This document shows, in pieces, positions 2,544 to 11,252 of a DNA stretch of 64,000 nucleotides. A model generated the notes under the pieces. It worked only from the letters and a program-made list of their open reading frames with translations, ran no database searches and was not told the DNA's origin. Position 1 is the stretch's first letter. The number at the start of each line of letters is the position of its first letter. The stretch is taken from positions 192,001 to 256,000 of the forward strand of contig CBDDBZ010000031.1 in NCBI GenBank assembly GCA_965225945.1, in the 5' to 3' direction. This stretch comes from Alphaproteobacteria bacterium. GTDB lineage: Bacteria; Pseudomonadota; Alphaproteobacteria; GCA-2731375. The position numbers and the translations under genes are program-made.

Positions 2544-3122
2544 ATGGCGAAGACCACGAAGTCGAAGACCACCACCAAGAAGAAGACCACCACCAAGAAG
2601 CCGACCAAGTCCAGGCCGAGTGCGCGGAAACAAGTATTCGCGTTTGCGGTGGACGAATACGTCGTTTATCCGACCCATGGGGTCGGCAAGGTCACGGGAA
2701 TCGAGGAGCGGGAGTTCGCCGGCGCGAGTTTGCAGCTCTTCGTGGTCAATTTCGACAAGGAGAAGATGACCTTACGGGTTCCGGTCGCCAAGGCGGATCA
2801 GACCGGCATGCGCTCTCTCAGCTCGCCGGAAAAGATGAAGACCGCGCTCGACACGCTCAAGGGGCGGGCGCGGGTCAAGCGGACGATGTGGAGCCGCCGG
2901 GCGCAAGAATACGAGGCCAAGATCAATTCGGGCGATCCGCTGTCGATCGCCGAGGTGGTGCGCGACCTGCACCGCGCCGAGGGCCAGCCGGAGCAGTCCT
3001 ATAGCGAGCGGCAGATCTACGAGGCCGCGCTCGACCGCTTGGTCCGCGAGTTCGCCGTGGTCGAGGGCTTGGACGAAGATCAGGCCACCGAGCGTTTGGA
3101 GCAGGTGCTGCAGGCGGCATGA
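2544..3122 (+). CDS. carD: CarD/CdnL family RNA polymerase-binding transcription factor
   Basis: VVYPTHGVG, MWSRRAQEYEAKINSG, EVVRDL; Lys/Thr-rich N-terminal extension. Confidence 0.95.
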   Translation: MAKTTKSKTTTKKKTTTKKPTKSRPSARKQVFAFAVDEYVVYPTHGVGKVTGIEEREFAGASLQLFVVNFDKEKMTLRVPVAKADQTGMRSLSSPEKMKTALDTLKGRARVKRTMWSRRAQEYEAKINSGDPLSIAEVVRDLHRAEGQPEQSYSERQIYEAALDRLVREFAVVEGLDEDQATERLEQVLQAA

Positions 3123-3217
3123 CGCCTCGGGCGGCGCCCGATGCCGGTGGCGGGCCTGGCGCGACGCGCGTCGCGCCGCGTCATTTCGACCGCCGAGCCG
3201 TGATCCTTCCCCGCGCC

Positions 3218-3359
3218 CTCGAGCAATATCCGAACGGAGGGAACCGGTGCGGTTCCATTCGTTTGGATAATATTGCTCTATTCTTCCAAGTTGGTAGAGC
3301 AGCTTTATCCGCCAGTTGGATCGCCGGAAGCGATTCCAATTGGCCGGATGCCGATCTAG
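3218..3359. repeat. Intergenic double-hairpin palindromic element (RIME/MITE-like)
   Basis: GAGCAATAT(3221)...ATATTGCTC(3278) stem with inner GGAACC/GGTTCC; second stem ATCCGCCAGTTGGA/TCCAATTGGCCGGAT; ends in CTAG; AT-richer than flanks. Confidence 0.55.
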
Positions 3360-3376
3360 TGGCGGGCTGAGGCGCC

Positions 3377-4183
3377 GTGCCCGACTTGGGCGACGAGACC
3401 CATGCCGTCCTGGAAGGGGCCGAGCGAATCTGGGCGATCGGCGCGATCCACGGCGAGGCCGAGCGTCTTCGCCGCCTGCATGACAAATTGGCCAAGGCCC
3501 TGGCGCCGGGCGATCGACTGATCTACCTCGGCAACGCGGTCGGGGTCGGCCCGGATCCGGCCGGCGTGATCGACGAGCTGCTGCGATTCCGCCGGGTGGC
3601 CCTGATGTTGCCGGGCGCCGAGCCCTGGGATGTCGTCTTCCTGCGCGGCGGTCAGGAGGAGATGTGGCAAAAATTGCTGCAACTGCAGTTTTCCCTCGAC
3701 GCGCGTGTGGTTCTCGAGTGGATGCTGGCGCAAGGCGTCGAGCCGACGCTTCTCGGCTATGGCGGTTCGGCGGCCGTGGCGCGGCGAATGATCGGCCTGG
3801 GTGCCGTCGCCCTCACCCGTTGGACCAGCGGACTGCGCGAGGCGATGCACGCCCGGCCCGGTCACGAGATGTTCATGGCCGCGCTCAGGCGCTTCGCGGT
3901 GAACGATGATCGCCGCCTATTATTCGTCAACGCCGGCATCGATCCGGCCCGACCGCTCGGTGAGCAGCGGGACACCTTCTGGTGGGGCGGCGCGGCCTTC
4001 GACGCCATGGCCGACCCCTATGGCAGCTTCGCGCGGGTGATTCGCGGCTTCAATCCTAGCCGCCGGGGCCTCCAGACCGGCCCGCACGCACTCACCATCG
4101 ACGGCGGCTCCGGCTTCGACGGCAATCTCGTGGCCGAATGTCTCGATCCCTCGGGCCGTGCACTCGCCCGAATCACCGCCTAA
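3377..4183 (+). CDS. Calcineurin-like metallophosphoesterase-fold protein with degenerate metal ligands
   Basis: AIGAIHG / YLGNAVG / RGGQEE / FVNAGI at the spacing of the GDxHG / GDxxD / GNHE / HAG motifs. Confidence 0.75.
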   Translation: MPDLGDETHAVLEGAERIWAIGAIHGEAERLRRLHDKLAKALAPGDRLIYLGNAVGVGPDPAGVIDELLRFRRVALMLPGAEPWDVVFLRGGQEEMWQKLLQLQFSLDARVVLEWMLAQGVEPTLLGYGGSAAVARRMIGLGAVALTRWTSGLREAMHARPGHEMFMAALRRFAVNDDRRLLFVNAGIDPARPLGEQRDTFWWGGAAFDAMADPYGSFARVIRGFNPSRRGLQTGPHALTIDGGSGFDGNLVAECLDPSGRALARITA

Positions 4184-4303
4184 AGTATTGCGTGTCTAAT
4201 TTTCTCTCTATTCTATCTTAGATTGACGTATTCGATCAACGTAATTTATAGTATGAATATACAATATAGGTGAGATGTTTTCCCGGGAGGCTGGATTGTC
4301 CTT

Positions 4304-4691
4304 ATGATCTCGGGGGAGTCTCGGCGGGCCAGGCGCGCCGACCGACATTTCATCGAACGTGCCATGCGCGTACCGATCCTGACCCGGGAGGACGAATGCG
4401 CGCTCGCCGATCGTTGGCATCGCGACGGCGACGAGGTGGCACTACACCGGCTGATCAACGCGCATGTTCGACTGGTCGTCGGCCAGGCAGTCAAGTTTCG
4501 CCATCACGGCCTGCCCATGGGCGACGGCTATGCGGAAGTGCTGAAGATCAACAAGCATGCGACGCAAGAGCAGTTCATCTGCCGCGATCGCTGGCGCAAA
4601 CGCGATCTCGTCGTGTGGGACAACCGTTGCACGCTGCACTGCGCAACCGACTTCGATCTCGAGCACGAGCGTCGCATCGTCCGGCGCACTT
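4304..4691 (+). pseudogene. Chimeric remnant: RpoH (sigma-32) N-terminus fused to TauD-family dioxygenase C-terminus, cut by IS21 end
   Basis: PILTREDECALADRW...ALHRLINAHVRLVV..A.KFRHHGLPMGD followed by HATQ..RWRKRDLVVWDNRCTLH...RRIVRRT. Confidence 0.75.
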
Positions 4692-4804
4692 TGTTAGCGG
4701 TGGTTCCAGGGTGCGCTTATATGGTGCTCTTTTTGAGCGGTCGGTGGCGGTTGGCTGACGGGATGCTTTTGGGCTTGGCTGATTTTGTTTCGCGCTGTGG
4801 CTAT

Positions 4805-5701
4805 TCAGTCGAGGGGCCGGTCATCGATCTGGAGCGGTTCGCCGGCGCGGTCGCGCATGAGCATGTCGTTCCAGTCCAGGCCGTCGAGGGCAGGGCGCAG
4901 GCGGACGACCCTGCTGTCGTTTCGGATGAGCCGTGCCGCGGCGTCATCGCCCTGGCGGGTGGCGTCGTAGGCGCAGAAGATCCGGCCGGGGTTCCAGGCC
5001 TCGATCCATTCGGGGAGGCTTGCGGTGGCGCCGCCGGTTGAGACCACGGCGCATCCCTTGCGCCCGGCCGGGACGAGGTGGAGGGAGAGGACCGACAGGG
5101 CGTCGATTGCGTTCTTGGCGAGGATGACGGAGTTCGGCCAGTCGGGTTCCCACGACATCCAGAAGCCGCCGCGCGCGGCGGCGCCGATCGGCGCGAGGCG
5201 GCGTGGCGCCGCGGCAGGGACGATCTCGGCGCCGAGAGCCTCGCCGGCCGCGTTTCGGCGGACGAACACGGCGTTGCCGTGGCGGTCGGCGTAGAGCAAG
5301 CCGAGGTCGCGGCACAGGGCGACGAGCACATCCGCGAGGCCGCGCTGCTCGACGAGGTAGCTCTGGATGGCGGGCCAGTGGCGGTCCGGGCACGGCGGCT
5401 TCGGGTGGCGATCGGCCGGGAACCGGTCACGGCACGGCAGTTCCGAGAAGAAGCCGAGGGCCTCGGGCACGGTGCACCGGCAGGCATGGATTACCAGGTC
5501 GATCGCTCCGCCCCCGCCCTCGCCGCGCAGATGTTCGTAGAACATAAAGCCGTTGATGCTGACGACGGATCCGGGACGCCTCCAGCGCGCGGCATCGGTG
5601 GGATCGCGGCGGTAGCCGAGGCGGCGGACGACGTCTTCGAGGGGATAGCCTCGCAGGGCCTCGGCCCGCACCCGCCGGTCCCAGAGGCGGGGACCATCCA
5701 T
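4805..5701 (-). CDS. DUF3991/TOPRIM primase-like protein (passenger of IS21 element)
   Basis: GGGGAIDLV.H N-terminal motif, YLVEQRGL, LYAD.HGNAVF, AIDALS, STGG, AYDA...GD, DWNDML. Confidence 0.75.
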   Translation of the reverse strand: MDGPRLWDRRVRAEALRGYPLEDVVRRLGYRRDPTDAARWRRPGSVVSINGFMFYEHLRGEGGGGAIDLVIHACRCTVPEALGFFSELPCRDRFPADRHPKPPCPDRHWPAIQSYLVEQRGLADVLVALCRDLGLLYADRHGNAVFVRRNAAGEALGAEIVPAAAPRRLAPIGAAARGGFWMSWEPDWPNSVILAKNAIDALSVLSLHLVPAGRKGCAVVSTGGATASLPEWIEAWNPGRIFCAYDATRQGDDAAARLIRNDSRVVRLRPALDGLDWNDMLMRDRAGEPLQIDDRPLD

Positions 5702-5703
5702 GG

Positions 5704-6492
5704 CTACGCCGGCGGCGGTTCCCCGCGGTCCTGCGCGCCGGCCTTGCCGGCTCGCCGCCGGCGGCGCTCGGCGCTGCGCTGCTTCTGGCGTTCCTCGGCC
5801 TCCTTGCGGCGCCAGGACTCGGCGTCGATGGCGATGATCTCGGCGTTGTGGACGAGGCGGTCGACCAGGGCGACGAGGCAGGCGGCGTTGGGGAAGGCCT
5901 CACCCCACTCGGCGAAGGGCCGGTTGGTGGTGATTATGGTGGAGTTCTGCTGGCTGCGGCTGGAGACGATGTTGAACAGCAGATCGGCATGGCGGTTGCT
6001 GTAGGACAGGTATCCGACCTCGTCGATCACCAGCAGGTGCTGGCGGGCGTAGAAGCGCAGCCTGCGCTGAAGCAGGGTGTCGCTGTCGAGGGCGGCGAGC
6101 TCGCCGAGCATGCTGGCCGCGGTGGCGAAGCGCACGGTGTGGCCCTCGAGGACGGCGCGGTGGGCGATATTGGCGGCGATGGTCGACTTGCCGACGCCGT
6201 TTGGGCCGACCAGGACGACGTTGGCGGCCTCGTTGAGGAACTCGAGGCTCATGAGATCCTCGACGGCCATGCGGTCGCAGCGGCGCGGCCATGCCCAGTC
6301 GAAGTCGGCGAGCGGCTTGAACTGTCCGAGGCGGGCGTCGCCGAGGCGGCGCTTGAGGCTGCGGCTTCGCCGTTCCTCCTCTTCCCAGGCGACCAGCGCA
6401 GCGGGCCAGTCATGCCCGGCGACCTCGCCCCAGTGGGCGGCGAGGCCGTGCAGGCCGAGCGCCCGGGCACGGCCCATGAGGGTATCGTTCAT
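5704..6492 (-). CDS. istB: IS21 helper AAA+ ATPase IstB
   Basis: DFDWAWP, Walker A GPNGVGKS, Walker B LLVIDE, TTN, DRLVH, SWR; ATGA overlap with istA. Confidence 0.92.
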
Positions 6493-7994
6493 TGCTCGCT
6501 GTCCTCCTCGGGTTCGCCGGCCAGCCCGTCGTATCCGACGAGGTCGTGATCGCGGACAGTGATGTCGCGCACTCTCGGATCGCCGGGCAGTTCGACGGGG
6601 ATGGGCGGGGGTTGGTGCCGCAGCTCGCGCCGCCGGGTCAGGCTCAGGCGCACGGCGTTGGGATGGGGAACGTCCCGCTTCAGGGCCTCGTCGATGGCCG
6701 CCTCGAGCTCGGCGGCGCCGTAGGCGTCGAGGAGGCGCAACAGGGCGGCGACGGTGGCGCCTATATAGCCGCCGCGCTGGGCGGCCTCGGCGAGCAGGCG
6801 CTCGCTGTTGGGCGCGGCCTGGACCAGCCGGTCCTGGCCGCGAAGGCGGCGGGCATGGCTCTTGCGCCTGACCAGCTCGGCGATGTGCTCGGGGTTCTCG
6901 ATGCGGGCCGCCTTGTCGAAGCTGCGCGGATGGCTGGCGATGACGTCCACACCGTCGAGGATGCGCACCTCGTCGAGCGTCGCGACCACGACGAGGGTGC
7001 GCCGCACATGGGTGTGCGGCACGCTGTAATCGTTGAGATCGAAGCGGGCGTAGGGGGTCTTGCCGATGGCGACCTCGACCCGGTCGTGGTCGGGGAAGGG
7101 ATCGCCGGGCAGCGCGATGAGAGAGCCGCGTTCCCGCTCGAAGGCCTCGCGCACGGTGATCGAGCGGTCTTCGGGCCAGGGGCGGTCGGCGGCGATGCCG
7201 TGGCACCAGGCCAGGGCCTGGGCGTTGAGATCGTCGATATCGCGCCACCGGCGGGCGGCGAAGAAGCTGGTCCGGACATAGCGAATCGCCCGCTCCACGC
7301 GCCCCTTCTCGTTGCCGCGCGCGACCGCGACGGGCTTGGGCAGGAAGTGGTAGTGGCCGGCGAGGTCGAGGATCCGGGGATTGAACCGGATGGCGGCGCC
7401 GCGGCGCTCCAGCACGACGCTCTTCAGGTTGTCGTACCAGAGCTCGCGGGGCACGCCCTGCCACGCCTCGAAGGCTTCGACATGGCCGCGCAGGAAGTTG
7501 CTCATCCCGGCGTCGAGGTAGAAGCGCAGGAAGATCCGCCGCGAGTAGCTGAGAACCATCACGAAGCCCATCAGGCGGCGCTCCGCGCGGCCGATCGTCA
7601 CCTTGCCGAAGTGTCCCCAGTCGACCTGGGCCTGCTCGCCGGGAAGGGTCTTGAGGCGCAGATAGGCCTCGGCCACGGGCCTGGGCCTGAAGTGGCTGAG
7701 CAGATGACGGAAGTGGTCGCCGCCGCCCGGATAGCCGCGTTCGCGCACCATCTGGTAGAGCCGGCTGGCGGGCAGCGTCGGCCAGGATGCCAGCGTCTCG
7801 GCGATGAACGGCACGTATGGATCGATCATCGACGGCCTGGGCGACCTCGCGTCCCGGGGCTCGCCGGCCGCGGTGAGGAGGCGCTCGACGGTGTAGCGAT
7901 GCACGCCGAGCTGGCGTGTGATCGTGCCGACCGTCCACTTCTCGACGTGATACAGGCGCAGGATCTCCGCGCGGGTCTCCTTGTCGATGGTCAT
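6489..7994 (-). CDS. istA: IS21 transposase IstA
   Basis: N-terminal [24 protein letters not shown] (intact DDE triad). Confidence 0.93.
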
Positions 7995-8431
7995 CTCACC
8001 CCCTTTCCCGTCGGGCGCAGCCCCGGATAGACCGCCTGCCCGCAGAACCGGCCGCAGCGATCGCAGCGGAAGACCCTGGCGGGCCGCTCGTGCCCGAAGG
8101 GCCGTGTTCCGGGACGCCCTGCCGGCGTCCGCACCACAACAGGACGCCGCCGCGCGGCGGTCAAAGGGTGATGCGTCACTTCCTGCCCGCGGCGCCGATT
8201 CACCGGCGTCCGGCGCCGCCGGCGTTCGCGATAGCGCCGCTGGCGCTCAGCATGCTTGTGACGGCCCCGCCGGCTGTTCTGGTAGCGCTGCCCGGCATGG
8301 CGCTGCGATCGCCGGCGCACCCGATCGCTGCAGCTCCGTGAACAGTAGATGTTGCCGTGGTCGCAGTGCCGGCAGAGAACCACCTGTTGATGGCACGAGG
8401 CGCAGTTGAACAGGCGGGCGGTGTTCTTCAT
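7991..8431 (-). CDS. Small Cys-rich, Arg-rich putative zinc-finger protein
   Basis: CxxC-x6-CxxC-x6-CxxxC, basic helix ([11 protein letters not shown]), C-terminal CDRC; stop overlaps istA ATG. Confidence 0.7.
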
Positions 8432-8437
8432 CGCGCA

Positions 8438-8576
8438 GCCGATGAGAACGGGGTGGACCCACGCCCAAACCCGCACGATACTGCGCATATGGGTCGTGCC
8501 TTGCATGGCTCGGGGGGTGCGGTGCCGGTCGTTGCCAGCAAGCAAACGGGGCCGGCGCCGCATCGTTCTCAGCGGC
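8438..8576 (+). ncRNA. Candidate structured RNA/ssDNA element inside the IS21 end
   Basis: 13-bp closing stem enclosing several hairpins whose mismatches are G-U-compatible only on the + strand. Confidence 0.35.
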
Positions 8577-8878
8577 CCGAGTGTACTCCCGCGGCTCCCC
8601 TTGTCAGGTCCGCGGAACCGCCGCCGCCAGCCAGCCAAAACAGGAATCGAGACGCCCGCCCGCGGTGGATAAGCAGCCCGCCGCCGCCAGACTCTTGGCG
8701 GTCGCCGCGGCGGGCTACTTACCCACCGCTGCGCCGAGCCAACTCCCGCCTGCAAACCACGCAGCTACAGCGCCACGATGCCCGATGTCGCTGAAATCAC
8801 CATCTAAGCGCGGTTTTTCATCGCCACCGACACATTCGGCCAAATGCGCTGATCCCGCCGTTTAGAGCGGTTTCCGCT

Positions 8879-10681
8879 CTACTGGAGTCGCCCAGCCACT
8901 CGCTCCCCCGCCAGTCCACGCTCCCGCAAGAGCTTCATGAAATTCCGCTTCGCCTTGTACCGACTGGTCAATTCGCCGACATAGGCGTCATGCTCGACCT
9001 CTTCGTCGAGGCCTTCCCGGATCACCCGCATGCGTTCCACCAACTCGCAAGCGGCCCTGTAGTTGGCGTTGCCGGCGCCGTCGACCAATCGCTCGATCCG
9101 GCGCGCGTGGGCCTTCAAGGCTTCTGCCGGATGGCTCTCTTCGCTCGCTTCCGCCAGTGACTCGAGCAGACCCTCGTGGCAACCGTGGGTTCGCACGATA
9201 ACCCAAGCTTCGGCGAAAAGTCCCTCCATCATCAAGACGTCGAGCAGAAGATCATTCGGCGACGTCCGCCAGGCCACCGAGGGACGCTCCCCGGCGTCGA
9301 TCCGGGCGCGCAGCATGGCGAGGACGCGGTCGCGGACCGCGACGTCCGCCGTTTTGTCGGCGCCGCCATCGCCCCGGAGCCGATGGTAGAGCTTCAGGCT
9401 CGGGCGTTAGTCGAAGGCCCGCCAAAGCAACGCCTCGCCATCCCCCACGCGTCCAACGCGTTCGTATTGATCGGCCGCGAAGAGCGTCAGACGTTCGTCG
9501 GGCGCATCCTCGAACAGCCACGATCCTTCCTCCGCCCACTTCATCGCGTCGGCCTCGCGGCCATGGTGGCGGCAGTAGGTCGCGACTTCGAGATAGTCGT
9601 ATGCCGTGGACAGGTCCTTAGCGCGGACGGCGATTCCGGCATCGACGTCGCCGTCGCGCTCGGCGAAACCTTTCAGGATCGCGCCCAGCCGAAACCGCGC
9701 GCCGTATTGAGGGTCGTGCGTCCGCCGCTTTCCGGCGCGCCGGGGCTCGATCTTCCGCCAGCCGTCATGCGCGAGACGGCGATACTCGGCGAGCCCGGTC
9801 TCGCCCAGCACATCCGCATAGGTCTCGCTCGCGCCGCCAAAAAAATCCCACGACCCGTCGGTTTCCCGCGCGAACAGGTCCCGGGCGAGCCCCACGGGAT
9901 CGGGCCTCGCCTCTCGGCACGCCGCAAGGTGGATTTCGAGGCCTCTGGCGTAAGCTTCGGCGCCATGCGCACCGGAATCGTCCATCTGGTCGAGCGCGTC
10001 CTCCATCCGCGCGAAAAACAGCTCGAGCAAGCGCAACACCAGCTCCGCCTGGCCCTTCGCGACCAGTTCCGCGACTTGGTCGAGGACGCGCTCGATGTCG
10101 GCCGCGAACTCGCCGGCGCGGCCATAATCGATGAAGTCGTGAATCCGCGTGGCCTCGGTGATGGCCTGTTCGAAGCGAGCGAACAGCGCTTCGTCGTCGG
10201 CGATCGCGCTCGCCGCCGCGAGTTCGAGATCTCGGCTCGACGCGGGATCACGCTCGCGCGAGATGCCGGCTCTTCTCGCGCGAGAAGAGCCGGCATCTCG
10301 CGCGAGAAGATACGCGCGGACCTCGCAACGCCGGTCGAGGGCTTGCGCAAACGCCTCGGGCCCGAGCTCGTTGACGGCGAGCGCGCTCGCCACCAAGTGC
10401 TTGCAGAAGCCCCAATCGTCGAAGGCCGGGCAGGAGCAGTCCCCGGAGACGTCACCTCCGGCGCCCAGGAGTTCCGAGCGATAGATCTCGGTGCCGAACA
10501 CCCTCGCCACGACGCGGGCGGAATCGATCGAGACGATATCGACCCGCTCGTCCTCATGGTAGGCGACGCCGCGCGCGTACACCTTCTCACCCGCGACGCG
10601 GCGTAGCACGGCGACATCAAAACGCGGGGACCCGACGGCCGCTTCGGGGCTACCCGACGCGCGTTTTGTCGTTTTCGTCAT
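8879..10681 (-). pseudogene. SWIM zinc-finger (DUF6880-like) protein with in-frame TAA at 9407-9409
   Basis: CSCP...FCKHLVA SWIM motif; reading continues in the same frame after the stop (RAFD*RPSLKLY...) to YKAKRNFMKLL. Confidence 0.8.
10253..10306. repeat. Perfect 54-bp palindrome within SWIM gene
   Basis: CTCGCGCGAGATGCCGGCTCTTCTCGCGCGAGAAGAGCCGGCATCTCGCGCGAG equals its own reverse complement. Confidence 0.95.
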
Positions 10682-10715
10682 GGTTGTCGGATCCCGTTGG
10701 CGTCGGCGCGCTCGA

Positions 10716-11252
10716 CTAAACCGGGTGAAGGAGCCCATCCTCTTCGATGAGGCGAAGAGCCTCGACCAAGGAGACATCCTTATGGAGGGATCTCCATTCG
10801 CCCGTATGGCGGTGCCACATCACATCGAAGAGGTCGCGGCCATGGTAATCCAGGCGAGCAAAGGCATGCTCGAATTCGGACCGAAGCGAGTCGGCGTGGC
10901 CCGAACGGAACCGCTCGATAAATCGATAGCGACCACCATGCCACTTCCCATAGAGATCCACGGGGTAGTTGAACTCGCTCGGTCGGATGGCGGGAAGGAA
11001 GCGCGGCTTCAGGACTTCGGCCACGAATTTTTCGCAAGCCAGGGTAATCGCGGCCTTCTCGAGGTCCGGCGGCCGGCTTGGAGTCCGCGTCCGCGTCCAA
11101 ACCCACTCTCGTCTCGGCACGGTGCCATCCCTCGAAACGAATCGCCTGTCAGACCCCGAGGATAACACGCCGGCCACCTCACCGAGAGCCCGGGCGAACT
11201 CATAATCTTCCCTACGAACAAGTCCTTCGCGTCGCTCGGTGGACTTCTTCAC
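10716..11252 (-). CDS. Conserved hypothetical protein (DUF3024-like); start may be GTG at 11120
   Basis: FNYPVDLYGKWHG...FARL.Y...WHRHTGEW. Confidence 0.55.
   Translation of the reverse strand: MKKSTERREGLVRREDYEFARALGEVAGVLSSGSDRRFVSRDGTVPRREWVWTRTRTPSRPPDLEKAAITLACEKFVAEVLKPRFLPAIRPSEFNYPVDLYGKWHGGRYRFIERFRSGHADSLRSEFEHAFARLDYHGRDLFDVMWHRHTGEWRSLHKDVSLVEALRLIEEDGLLHPV

Follow-up and report, generated by a model that had tools for sequence, protein, structure and literature searches.

The question raised by this locus is what a block of strongly folding sequence does directly in front of a set of transposition genes, and on which strand it acts. The block, 139 nt long, occupies positions 8438-8576 of the window, a 64,000-nt stretch of DNA (contig C31, positions 192001-256000) from a 6.27-Mb genome, and it precedes a gene for a zinc-finger (Zn-finger) protein and the genes istA and istB of an IS21-family element. 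An earlier note had described it as a strand-asymmetric multi-stem structure and had offered three readings: an antisense or regulatory RNA, an RNA partner of the Zn-finger protein, or a single-strand initiation signal for a Toprim protein encoded nearby. The best reading of the 139 nt is a composite control region that combines several features, rather than one RNA, and we give a probability of roughly 0.55 to the view that it belongs to an antisense control module of the RNA-IN/RNA-OUT type at the left end of the element. The principle of antisense control is already known; this predicted RNA, its architecture and the element family that carries it are new.

A conserved single-strand structure

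All four stems that had been named are present in the window where they were claimed to be: a closing stem in which GCCGATGAGAACG (8438-8450) pairs with CGTTCTCAGCGGC (8564-8576), the hairpin CGCA-CGATAC-TGCG (8472-8485), and the stems GGGTCGTGC/GCATGGCTC (8491-8499/8503-8511) and GGTGCGGTGCCGGTC/GGCCGGCGCCGCATC (8516-8530/8550-8564). The start codon of the Zn-finger gene (8431-8429, minus strand) is 6 nt away from 8438. The 139 nt fold better than shuffled controls on either strand, with a minimum free energy (MFE) of -76.1 kcal/mol on the plus strand (z -4.31) and -70.8 kcal/mol on the minus strand (z -3.85), values that none of 200 shuffles equals. Because both strands beat the shuffles, the asymmetry is modest when judged from the window alone. 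A further pairing, GCACGAT/GTCGTGC, which had been taken as the hint of a switch, can be formed in the window but has not been kept among relatives: pairing holds in 93 of 119 cells, and 15 of 17 sequences have A-C at one position. No Rfam family matches within 8438-8576 at E <= 10 in a scan of 7500-9500, and at the gathering score none is found at the place of the structure in the loci of 15 relatives. A small plus-strand open reading frame (ORF) at 8406-8672 was rejected as coding on account of single-base indels among relatives in the aligned region.

Of 475 candidate relatives of the Zn-finger protein, 218 pass E <= 0.001; at least 504 and at least 563 relatives were confirmed in two collections of genome and metagenome contigs, and 80 loci were kept from each. 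Their labels include Alpha-, Beta- and Gammaproteobacteria and other phyla, and the gene directly precedes istA and istB at almost every locus where the available DNA extends far enough. Close relatives, which with one exception are labelled Alphaproteobacteria, share 75-90% identity with the window over the upstream 140 nt. A covariance model, R1, was built from 17 sequences in plus-strand orientation and run over 140 distinct loci, with 20 further copies, mostly repeats within the same assemblies, excluded. The model finds its target in the window and in 70 of these 140 loci, each time antisense to the Zn-finger gene; re-run on the window and 81 loci picked from the hits, it gives 71 full-length matches at E <= 0.005. 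Within the window's own genome there are 22 matches, all inside copies or fragments of the element. The covariation, strand and promoter counts given below are based on 69 distinct homolog sequences, in 51 of which a start codon lies confidently within 40 nt of the match.

In the alignment of these 69 sequences 90.2% of the cells are paired, and double changes are seen at 44 of the 46 pairs. None of 500 shuffles attains the observed values for pairing and covariation, and pairing falls to 34-43% when the partners are slid by one to three columns. The lower stem of the hairpin that we call P5 (Table 1) is 99.3% paired, with single pairs divided between CG 33 and UA 31, GC 47 and AU 19, or GC 41 and AU 23. 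In the preceding hairpin, P4, the apical CGTGC/GCACG is almost invariant. The closing stem, P1, covaries as well (e.g., AU 24 and CG 11 at one pair, and UA 39, AU 5, GC 4 and CG 3 at another). Since this alignment had been fitted to the model, the P4-P5 segment of all 69 sequences was realigned with MAFFT alone; RNAalifold then regains the P4 apex and 12 bp of P5, with 14 of 16 pairs doubly changed and single pairs at CG 32/UA 31 and GC 42/AU 23. Conservation and covariation among homologs, which the earlier note had left for comparison to decide, are therefore present, and the stretch 8438-8576 harbours a genuine and old single-strand structure that is conserved.

The strand bias is local

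The relatives bear out the claim of a strand asymmetry. Scoring the same helices in 17 relatives aligned with MAFFT gives 741 paired cells out of 775 on the plus strand and 680 on the minus strand, and the 69 homologs hold 342 cells that are G-U on the plus strand versus 52 that are A-C there and hence G-U on the minus strand. The consensus fold of the 69 reaches -34.5 kcal/mol on the plus strand and -16.9 on the sense strand. This asymmetry is limited to the hairpins at 8491-8511 and 8516-8564. Over P4 and P5 the plus strand has the lower MFE in 65 of 69 homologs (means -40.6 vs -32.9), whereas over the 5' part of the structure (the P1 arm and the elements labelled P2 and P3; columns 1-98) it is lower in 29 and higher in 40. 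Parsimony on the tree, counting changes from a Watson-Crick pair to G-U or to A-C on the plus strand, gives 54 versus 2 events for P5 and 23 versus 6 for P4, or 77 versus 8 for the two together; P1, with 17 versus 14, shows no strand bias. In the window the segment 8489-8576 folds at -49.5 kcal/mol on the plus strand (z -3.24) and at -32.4 on the minus strand (z -1.37; 15 of 200 shuffles equal it). The copies within the window's own genome differ in the structure at three sites only, too few for judging strand selection; two of the variants (8511 C>T and 8562 A>G) retain a plus-strand wobble pair, and the third (8453 G>C) disrupts one pair.

Two predicted facing promoters

The strand bias sets in where a plus-strand transcript is predicted to start, at about 8489. 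The candidate promoter for this transcript, a sigma-70-like site that we call pOUT, has as its -10 box the sequence GATACT, which is the loop of the CGCA-CGATAC-TGCG hairpin; what had been listed as a hairpin is thus better read as part of a conserved plus-strand promoter. GATACT is the best conserved unpaired motif of the region. Of the 69 homologs, 46 have GATACT or AATACT as this hexamer; position 2 is A in 64 and position 6 is T in 58, and in 58 the hexamer terminates 7-8 nt before P4. A -35 hexamer with at least four of six matches to TTGACA at a spacing of 16-18 nt is present in 43 of 69, and a TGn extended -10 in 19. The combined pattern TNGAYN-N16-18-RATAHT, which was composed after inspection of these same sequences, is found in 56 of the 69 homologs on the plus strand and in none on the other; among 1380 dinucleotide shuffles it turns up once. 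In 52 of these 56 homologs the -10 box of the pattern ends 7-8 nt before P4. From the match to the consensus and from its conservation we predict an outward promoter that lies within the element and faces the one for the transposase genes.

The promoter that it faces, pIN, is the sole sigma-70-like site in 8000-8900 at the scan threshold of 9 of 12 consensus matches, which it just reaches (shuffles yield 0.1). In the relaxed form TGACR-N16-19-TANANN it is found in 35 of 69 homologs, versus 4 of 69 on the antisense strand and none in shuffles, and in 30 of those 35 its -10 box stops 3 or 6 nt before the structure. From this placement we infer that the sense mRNA starts at the right edge of the structure, at about 8573 if the usual 7-nt spacing from the -10 box applies. 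In distant relatives AGGAG and an ATG come right after the left edge.

Contigs from four RNA-library runs (X2-X5), which carry no strand, ends or level, were compared with the element. Two studies supply contigs over 8498-8832, and two of these contigs extend into flanking DNA; the contigs listed skip about 8381-8497, and depth at 8542-8832 is greater than at 8104-8541. Such unstranded contigs are compatible with a two-promoter model, and what they establish is that sequence of the element is present in RNA libraries; they are evidence neither for nor against any particular transcript.

The position of pOUT bears on the possibility that the whole of 8438-8576 is a single plus-strand non-coding RNA, closed by P1 and serving either in antisense regulation or in partnership with the Zn-finger protein. 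The complete multi-stem fold is the MFE of the plus strand, R1 matches end to end in all 71 hits, and P2 and P3 lean toward the plus strand in the fitted alignment (21 vs 5 events). However, strict matches to a plus-strand promoter left of 8438 occur in just 3 of 69 homologs, the best position weight matrix (PWM) scores there average 3.5 bits versus 2.6 on the control strand, and the third positions of Zn-finger codons 1-62 vary freely. A plus-strand promoter upstream of the whole structure was rejected on these motif, PWM and synonymous-site checks. The bias, moreover, is local, with none in P1 and none in columns 1-98 when measured free of the alignment, and the conserved loop can be read as a -10 box, correctly spaced for a promoter. 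A one-piece RNA is consequently an unlikely explanation. The earlier suggestion of an antisense or regulatory RNA thus survives in a narrower form: the one-strand selection on P4-P5 and the conservation of pOUT favour it, while the idea of one multi-stem RNA of 139 nt does not hold.

The sense leader and the proposed mechanism

The left arm of P1 (8438-8449) is upstream of pOUT and therefore cannot be part of the plus-strand RNA. With its lack of strand bias, this removes the closing stem from the RNA to which it had been assigned. P1 fits better as a long-range helix of the mRNA leader, in which the 5' end is joined to the 12 nt before the start region. In three loci (L065, L089 and L122) the P1 arm is altered, and there the sense strand clearly folds better than its complement. 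The arm next to the start region has an alternative partner: in a predicted hairpin, P0, it pairs with the start codon (-7.7 kcal/mol in the window segment, RNAfold). Pairing between the start codon and the P1 arm is seen in 44 of 51 homologs; the control is high, with shuffled arms pairing in 427 of 1020 cases. In distant relatives the Shine-Dalgarno sequence AGGAG falls in the loop of P0. These pairings point to two mutually exclusive conformations of the leader, P1 or P0.

We propose that the parts work together as an antisense module. On the minus strand pIN would drive the mRNA for the Zn-finger protein, istA and istB, and on the plus strand pOUT would drive an outward antisense RNA that opens with the hairpins P4 and P5. 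The two transcripts would overlap by about 85 nt (8489-8573). By pairing with the first 85 nt of the mRNA, the antisense RNA would remove the 5' arm of P1, and the freed 3' arm could then shut over the start codon as P0. Alternatively, the sense/antisense duplex may be marked for cleavage, or the facing promoters may interfere mutually. The expected outcome is that expression of the transposition genes would drop as the copy number of the element rises.

Several observations weigh against this proposal. The predicted overlap ends about 55 nt short of the start codon, so that repression would have to be indirect. P2 and P3 favour the plus strand by 21 events to 5 though they lie upstream of the predicted antisense start, a figure that comes from a gappy, model-fitted part of the alignment where the alignment-free test shows no bias. 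The whole 139 nt fold better on the minus strand in 8 of 69 homologs, 6 of which are close relatives. In the window pOUT scores just 8 of 12 consensus positions; this is below the threshold of 9, so that the scan of 8000-8900 listed no plus-strand promoter, and the pattern that recovers pOUT in the homologs is, as stated, a post hoc one. No terminator-like sites are found in 8000-8900, and the 8 nt after P5 average 3.2 T. The frequency with which shuffled arms also pair with the start codon has to be counted here as well.

Remaining alternatives

Could the sense leader suffice by itself? In that case the region would be a cis-acting 5' untranslated region (UTR), translation would be governed by P1 and the start-codon hairpin, and there would be no antisense RNA. 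The conserved pIN, which puts the mRNA start at the edge of the structure, the Shine-Dalgarno sequence and start codon directly after it, the covariation of P1 without strand bias and the retention of the start-codon hairpin all agree with such a leader. However, P4 and P5 are selected on the opposite strand, both by the event counts and by MFE (65 of 69), the consensus fold is about twice as stable on the plus strand (-34.5 vs -16.9), and the predicted leader of the window folds no better than shuffles (z -1.56; 15 of 200 equal it). A leader without antisense RNA is improbable on these grounds.

A site that works as single-stranded DNA is a different kind of explanation, and we think it very improbable. 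Replication of a transposition intermediate would unwind the plus strand, which would then fold as DNA and serve host enzymes or the Toprim protein as a priming or assembly site, in the manner of plasmid single-strand origins and initiation signals (sso/ssi) or of the complementary-strand origin of phage G4. Signals of this type are multi-hairpin structures of about 140 nt that function on one strand, and they act as DNA in replicons with a single-stranded stage; G-T is, in addition, the best tolerated mismatch in DNA. The strand-specific structure, the lack of a conventional terminator and, in the clade of the window, a Toprim protein encoded within the element would suit such a site. Unlike sso/ssi signals, however, the structure described here belongs to the predicted leader of a transcript of a DDE transposon, and in most carriers no Toprim gene is found. 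By tblastn this gene is detected only in loci whose Zn-finger protein is at least 63% identical to that of the window, whereas many distant relatives retain the structure with only Zn-finger, IstA and IstB detected. In 16 distant loci no matching ORF of Toprim size directly follows istB, and 6 downstream ORFs of distant loci show no Toprim or DUF3991 in Pfam. A priming site for the Toprim protein, the third of the earlier readings, was rejected for this reason. Nor would a DNA-only site need a position exactly between promoter and start codon, and TGGAC-17-GATACT has an ordinary reading as a double-strand promoter. The account of IS21 in excerpts of PMC10122671 describes no single-strand stage.

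It is also very doubtful that the P4-P5 RNA is a dedicated partner of the Zn-finger protein, the two forming a transposon-encoded ribonucleoprotein that acts on IstA/IstB transposition. Zn-finger protein and RNA structure co-occur in every lineage examined, and such a particle could take a role in, for example, immunity, end choice or target choice, as a third, RNA-dependent component of IS21-type transposition. That IstA, the Zn-finger protein or a host factor binds here to operator or accessory sites in double-stranded DNA is hardly probable at all: GATACT, CGTGC/GCACG and GGGGG are conserved in sequence besides their pairing, and IS21 ends carry multiple IstA-binding repeats at which bound IstA occludes promoter regions (PMC10122671, in part), but binding to the double helix leaves the compensatory changes and the one-strand G-U bias (77 vs 8) unexplained.

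Comparison with known systems

Antisense RNA promoters are listed for IS10, IS1999, IS30 and IS200 in a 2022 review (PMC9330008), and the textbook picture of antisense transposase control rests on very few elements. In the literature searched we found no antisense RNA, Zn-finger gene or Toprim passenger described for IS21, nor any account of the present element; term searches of the Minerva preprint and of the Ralstonia IS survey brought up nothing relevant. The closest parallel to the module proposed here is IS10/Tn10, where an outward promoter in the left end faces the transposase promoter (PMC9330008). The arrangement shares with RNA-IN/RNA-OUT the facing promoters, the transcripts that overlap at their 5' ends and a stable antisense stem-loop, all of which are predicted in the present case, and copy-number-dependent repression would be expected here too. 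There is no homology in sequence or structure, however; the Rfam family RNA-OUT is unmatched at E <= 10, and IS10 belongs to the IS4 family whereas the present element encodes IS21-type IstA and IstB. In IS10 the overlap is about 36 nt and includes the ribosome-binding site. Here it is predicted to be about 85 nt, with two hairpins, and the ribosome-binding site lies outside it.

A second parallel is IS200, for which excerpts of PMC4513863 describe a small RNA (art200) opposite the 5' UTR of tnpA together with an mRNA structure that hides the translation start, the two layers being independent. The same combination of a small RNA opposite the 5' UTR and a start-hiding mRNA structure is predicted here, in a different element family and with a different RNA that is predicted from sequence. 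Because P1 and P0 are mutually exclusive, the layers would appear to be coupled, unlike the independent ones reported in those excerpts for IS200.

Excerpts of PMC10122671 describe IS21 with two ORFs, direct repeats of 5 bp, and a -10 box in the left and a -35 box in the right repeat, which make a strong promoter in tandem copies. The present element resembles this canonical IS21 in its IstA and IstB, its TGT...ACA ends and its short direct repeats. Unlike canonical IS21 it has an extra first gene, that for the Zn-finger protein, a predicted antisense promoter, and a complete predicted internal promoter about 225 nt inside the end, with a leader of about 145 nt.

If the module is real, a large and widespread subgroup of IS21 elements owns an RNA-IN/RNA-OUT system, and one unlike the known architectures in its two hairpins, its 85-nt overlap, which ends before the start codon is reached, and its leader helix that rivals a start-codon hairpin. 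The structure represents a strongly covarying new RNA family that is absent from Rfam, and the analysis flags an uncharacterised conserved Zn-finger gene as a regular third gene of such elements. The predicted outward promoter, 340 nt from the end of the element, could activate adjacent host genes.

The element and its genes

The structure had been placed upstream of an IS21 operon. It does precede the Zn-finger and istA genes, but it is located inside the mobile element, not in host DNA. In a megablast comparison of window positions 3000-10500 with the genome, 4692-8832 is a 4141-bp repeat with about 22 copies at 99.4-100% identity, all bounded at 4692 and 8832. The termini read TGT...ACA within imperfect terminal inverted repeats; both end motifs are present in 19 of 20 other copies, and direct repeats of 5-7 bp flank most of them. 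At the window's own copy a clean target duplication is missing (cactt vs cattc). IstA, IstB, inverted repeats, short duplications and multiple copies are all found, and the element belongs to the IS21 family. Its layout differs from the two-gene one of istA and istB: the Zn-finger gene stands before istA and a DUF3991/Toprim gene after istB. With four genes it is thus an IS21-family element with extra genes. A non-coding 400 nt separates the left end (8832) from the Zn-finger ATG, and the structure forms the last 139 nt of it. The positions of the features are collected in Table 1.

Table 1. Features of the element and of its control region, in window coordinates.
Feature	Positions	Strand	Remarks
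IS21-family element, whole	4692..8832	-	4141 bp; four genes, all on the - strand
Zn-finger Arg-rich protein gene, 146 aa, first in operon	7991..8431	-	218 relatives at E <= 0.001
istA, IS21 family transposase	6489..7994	-	NF033546 (transpos_IS21, equivalog), 249.1 bits (cut-off 160); 4-nt overlap with Zn-finger stop
istB, AAA+ helper	5704..6492	-	PF01695 IstB_IS21, 182 bits; 4-nt overlap with istA stop
DUF3991/Toprim passenger gene	4805..5701	-	Pfam DUF3991 and Toprim_2
pIN -35 box CTGACA	8602..8607	-	predicted promoter of the Zn-finger/istAB mRNA
pIN -10 box TACACT	8580..8585	-	16-nt spacer; predicted mRNA start ~8573
P1, 5' arm, 5' end of predicted sense leader	8565..8576	-	on the + strand, pyrimidine-rich tail after P5
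Hairpin P5, predicted antisense RNA	8516..8564	+	15-bp lower stem 8516-8530/8550-8564, short apical stem
G-rich linker between P4 and P5	8512..8515	+	consensus tGGGGG, column frequencies 0.8-0.9 in 69 homologs
Hairpin P4, predicted 5'-terminal in antisense RNA	8491..8511	+	94.5% paired; 8491-8499/8503-8511
pOUT -10 box GATACT	8477..8482	+	predicted antisense start ~8489
pOUT -35 box TGGACC	8454..8459	+	17 nt upstream of -10
P1, 3' arm, sense leader just before start region	8438..8449	-	alternatively pairs with start codon
Start-codon hairpin P0, predicted	8428..8445	-	TCATCG 8445-8440/CGATGA 8433-8428, including ATG 8431-8429

The Zn-finger protein has invariant Cys residues and the motifs RYQ..RGR..HAERQ, and the freely varying third codon positions indicate that its ORF is coding. 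Profile searches of Pfam, NCBIfam and the PDB give no match. An AlphaFold model with a mean predicted local distance difference test (pLDDT) score of 73.3 has a zinc ribbon at the N terminus, an Arg-rich hairpin of two helices at 32-74 and, at the C terminus, a small zinc knuckle, and a Foldseek search with this model returns no PDB match at E <= 0.001. In plasmid records the ORF is unannotated or hypothetical, istA is labelled 'IS21 family transposase' and the element carries no name. The istA product is also matched by Pfam rve and Mu-transpos_C_2. At one of the relatives' loci, L075, the tblastn match to IstA ends early, at 6262, and just past it, at 6327-6551 on the opposite strand, lies a match to a group II intron domain (RF02001, 105.6 bits).

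Copies of the element in the genome vary in several ways. A solo left-end fragment of 457 bp (G000:C31:4922-5378, equal to window 8376-8832) spans all of the control region and reaches 55 nt into the Zn-finger gene. Two copies are longer (G000:C27:58997-63443, 4447 bp, and G000:C39:304481-308870, 4390 bp), with about 250-300 bp extra near window 5500-5570, and several vary by short deletions of at most 8 nt at 5514-5524. The sites 8133 (A/G, 11 copies), 8706 (C/T, 11 copies) and 5187 (A/G, 20 copies) divide the copies into two groups, a split that points to two sublineages; T at 8706 and G at 5187 are also seen in contigs from the RNA libraries.

A near-perfect long hairpin occupies window 8655-8740, between the left terminal repeat and pIN. 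It folds at -68.5 kcal/mol on the minus strand (z -6.36) and at -53.8 on the plus strand (z -4.73), and has weak microRNA-like matches in Rfam on both strands; in three close relatives, too, this stretch is self-complementary. A possible role is to insulate the element against read-through transcription from outside.

Away from the element, window 3211-3359 holds a separate small repeat of about 140 nt, with copies 83-89% identical on at least 6 other contigs. Beside the left end, on the minus strand at 8879-11252, lie a 145-aa ORF without clear family and ORFs for two more proteins, one with SWIM zinc finger/DUF6880 (9407-10777) and one with DUF3024 (10716-11252).

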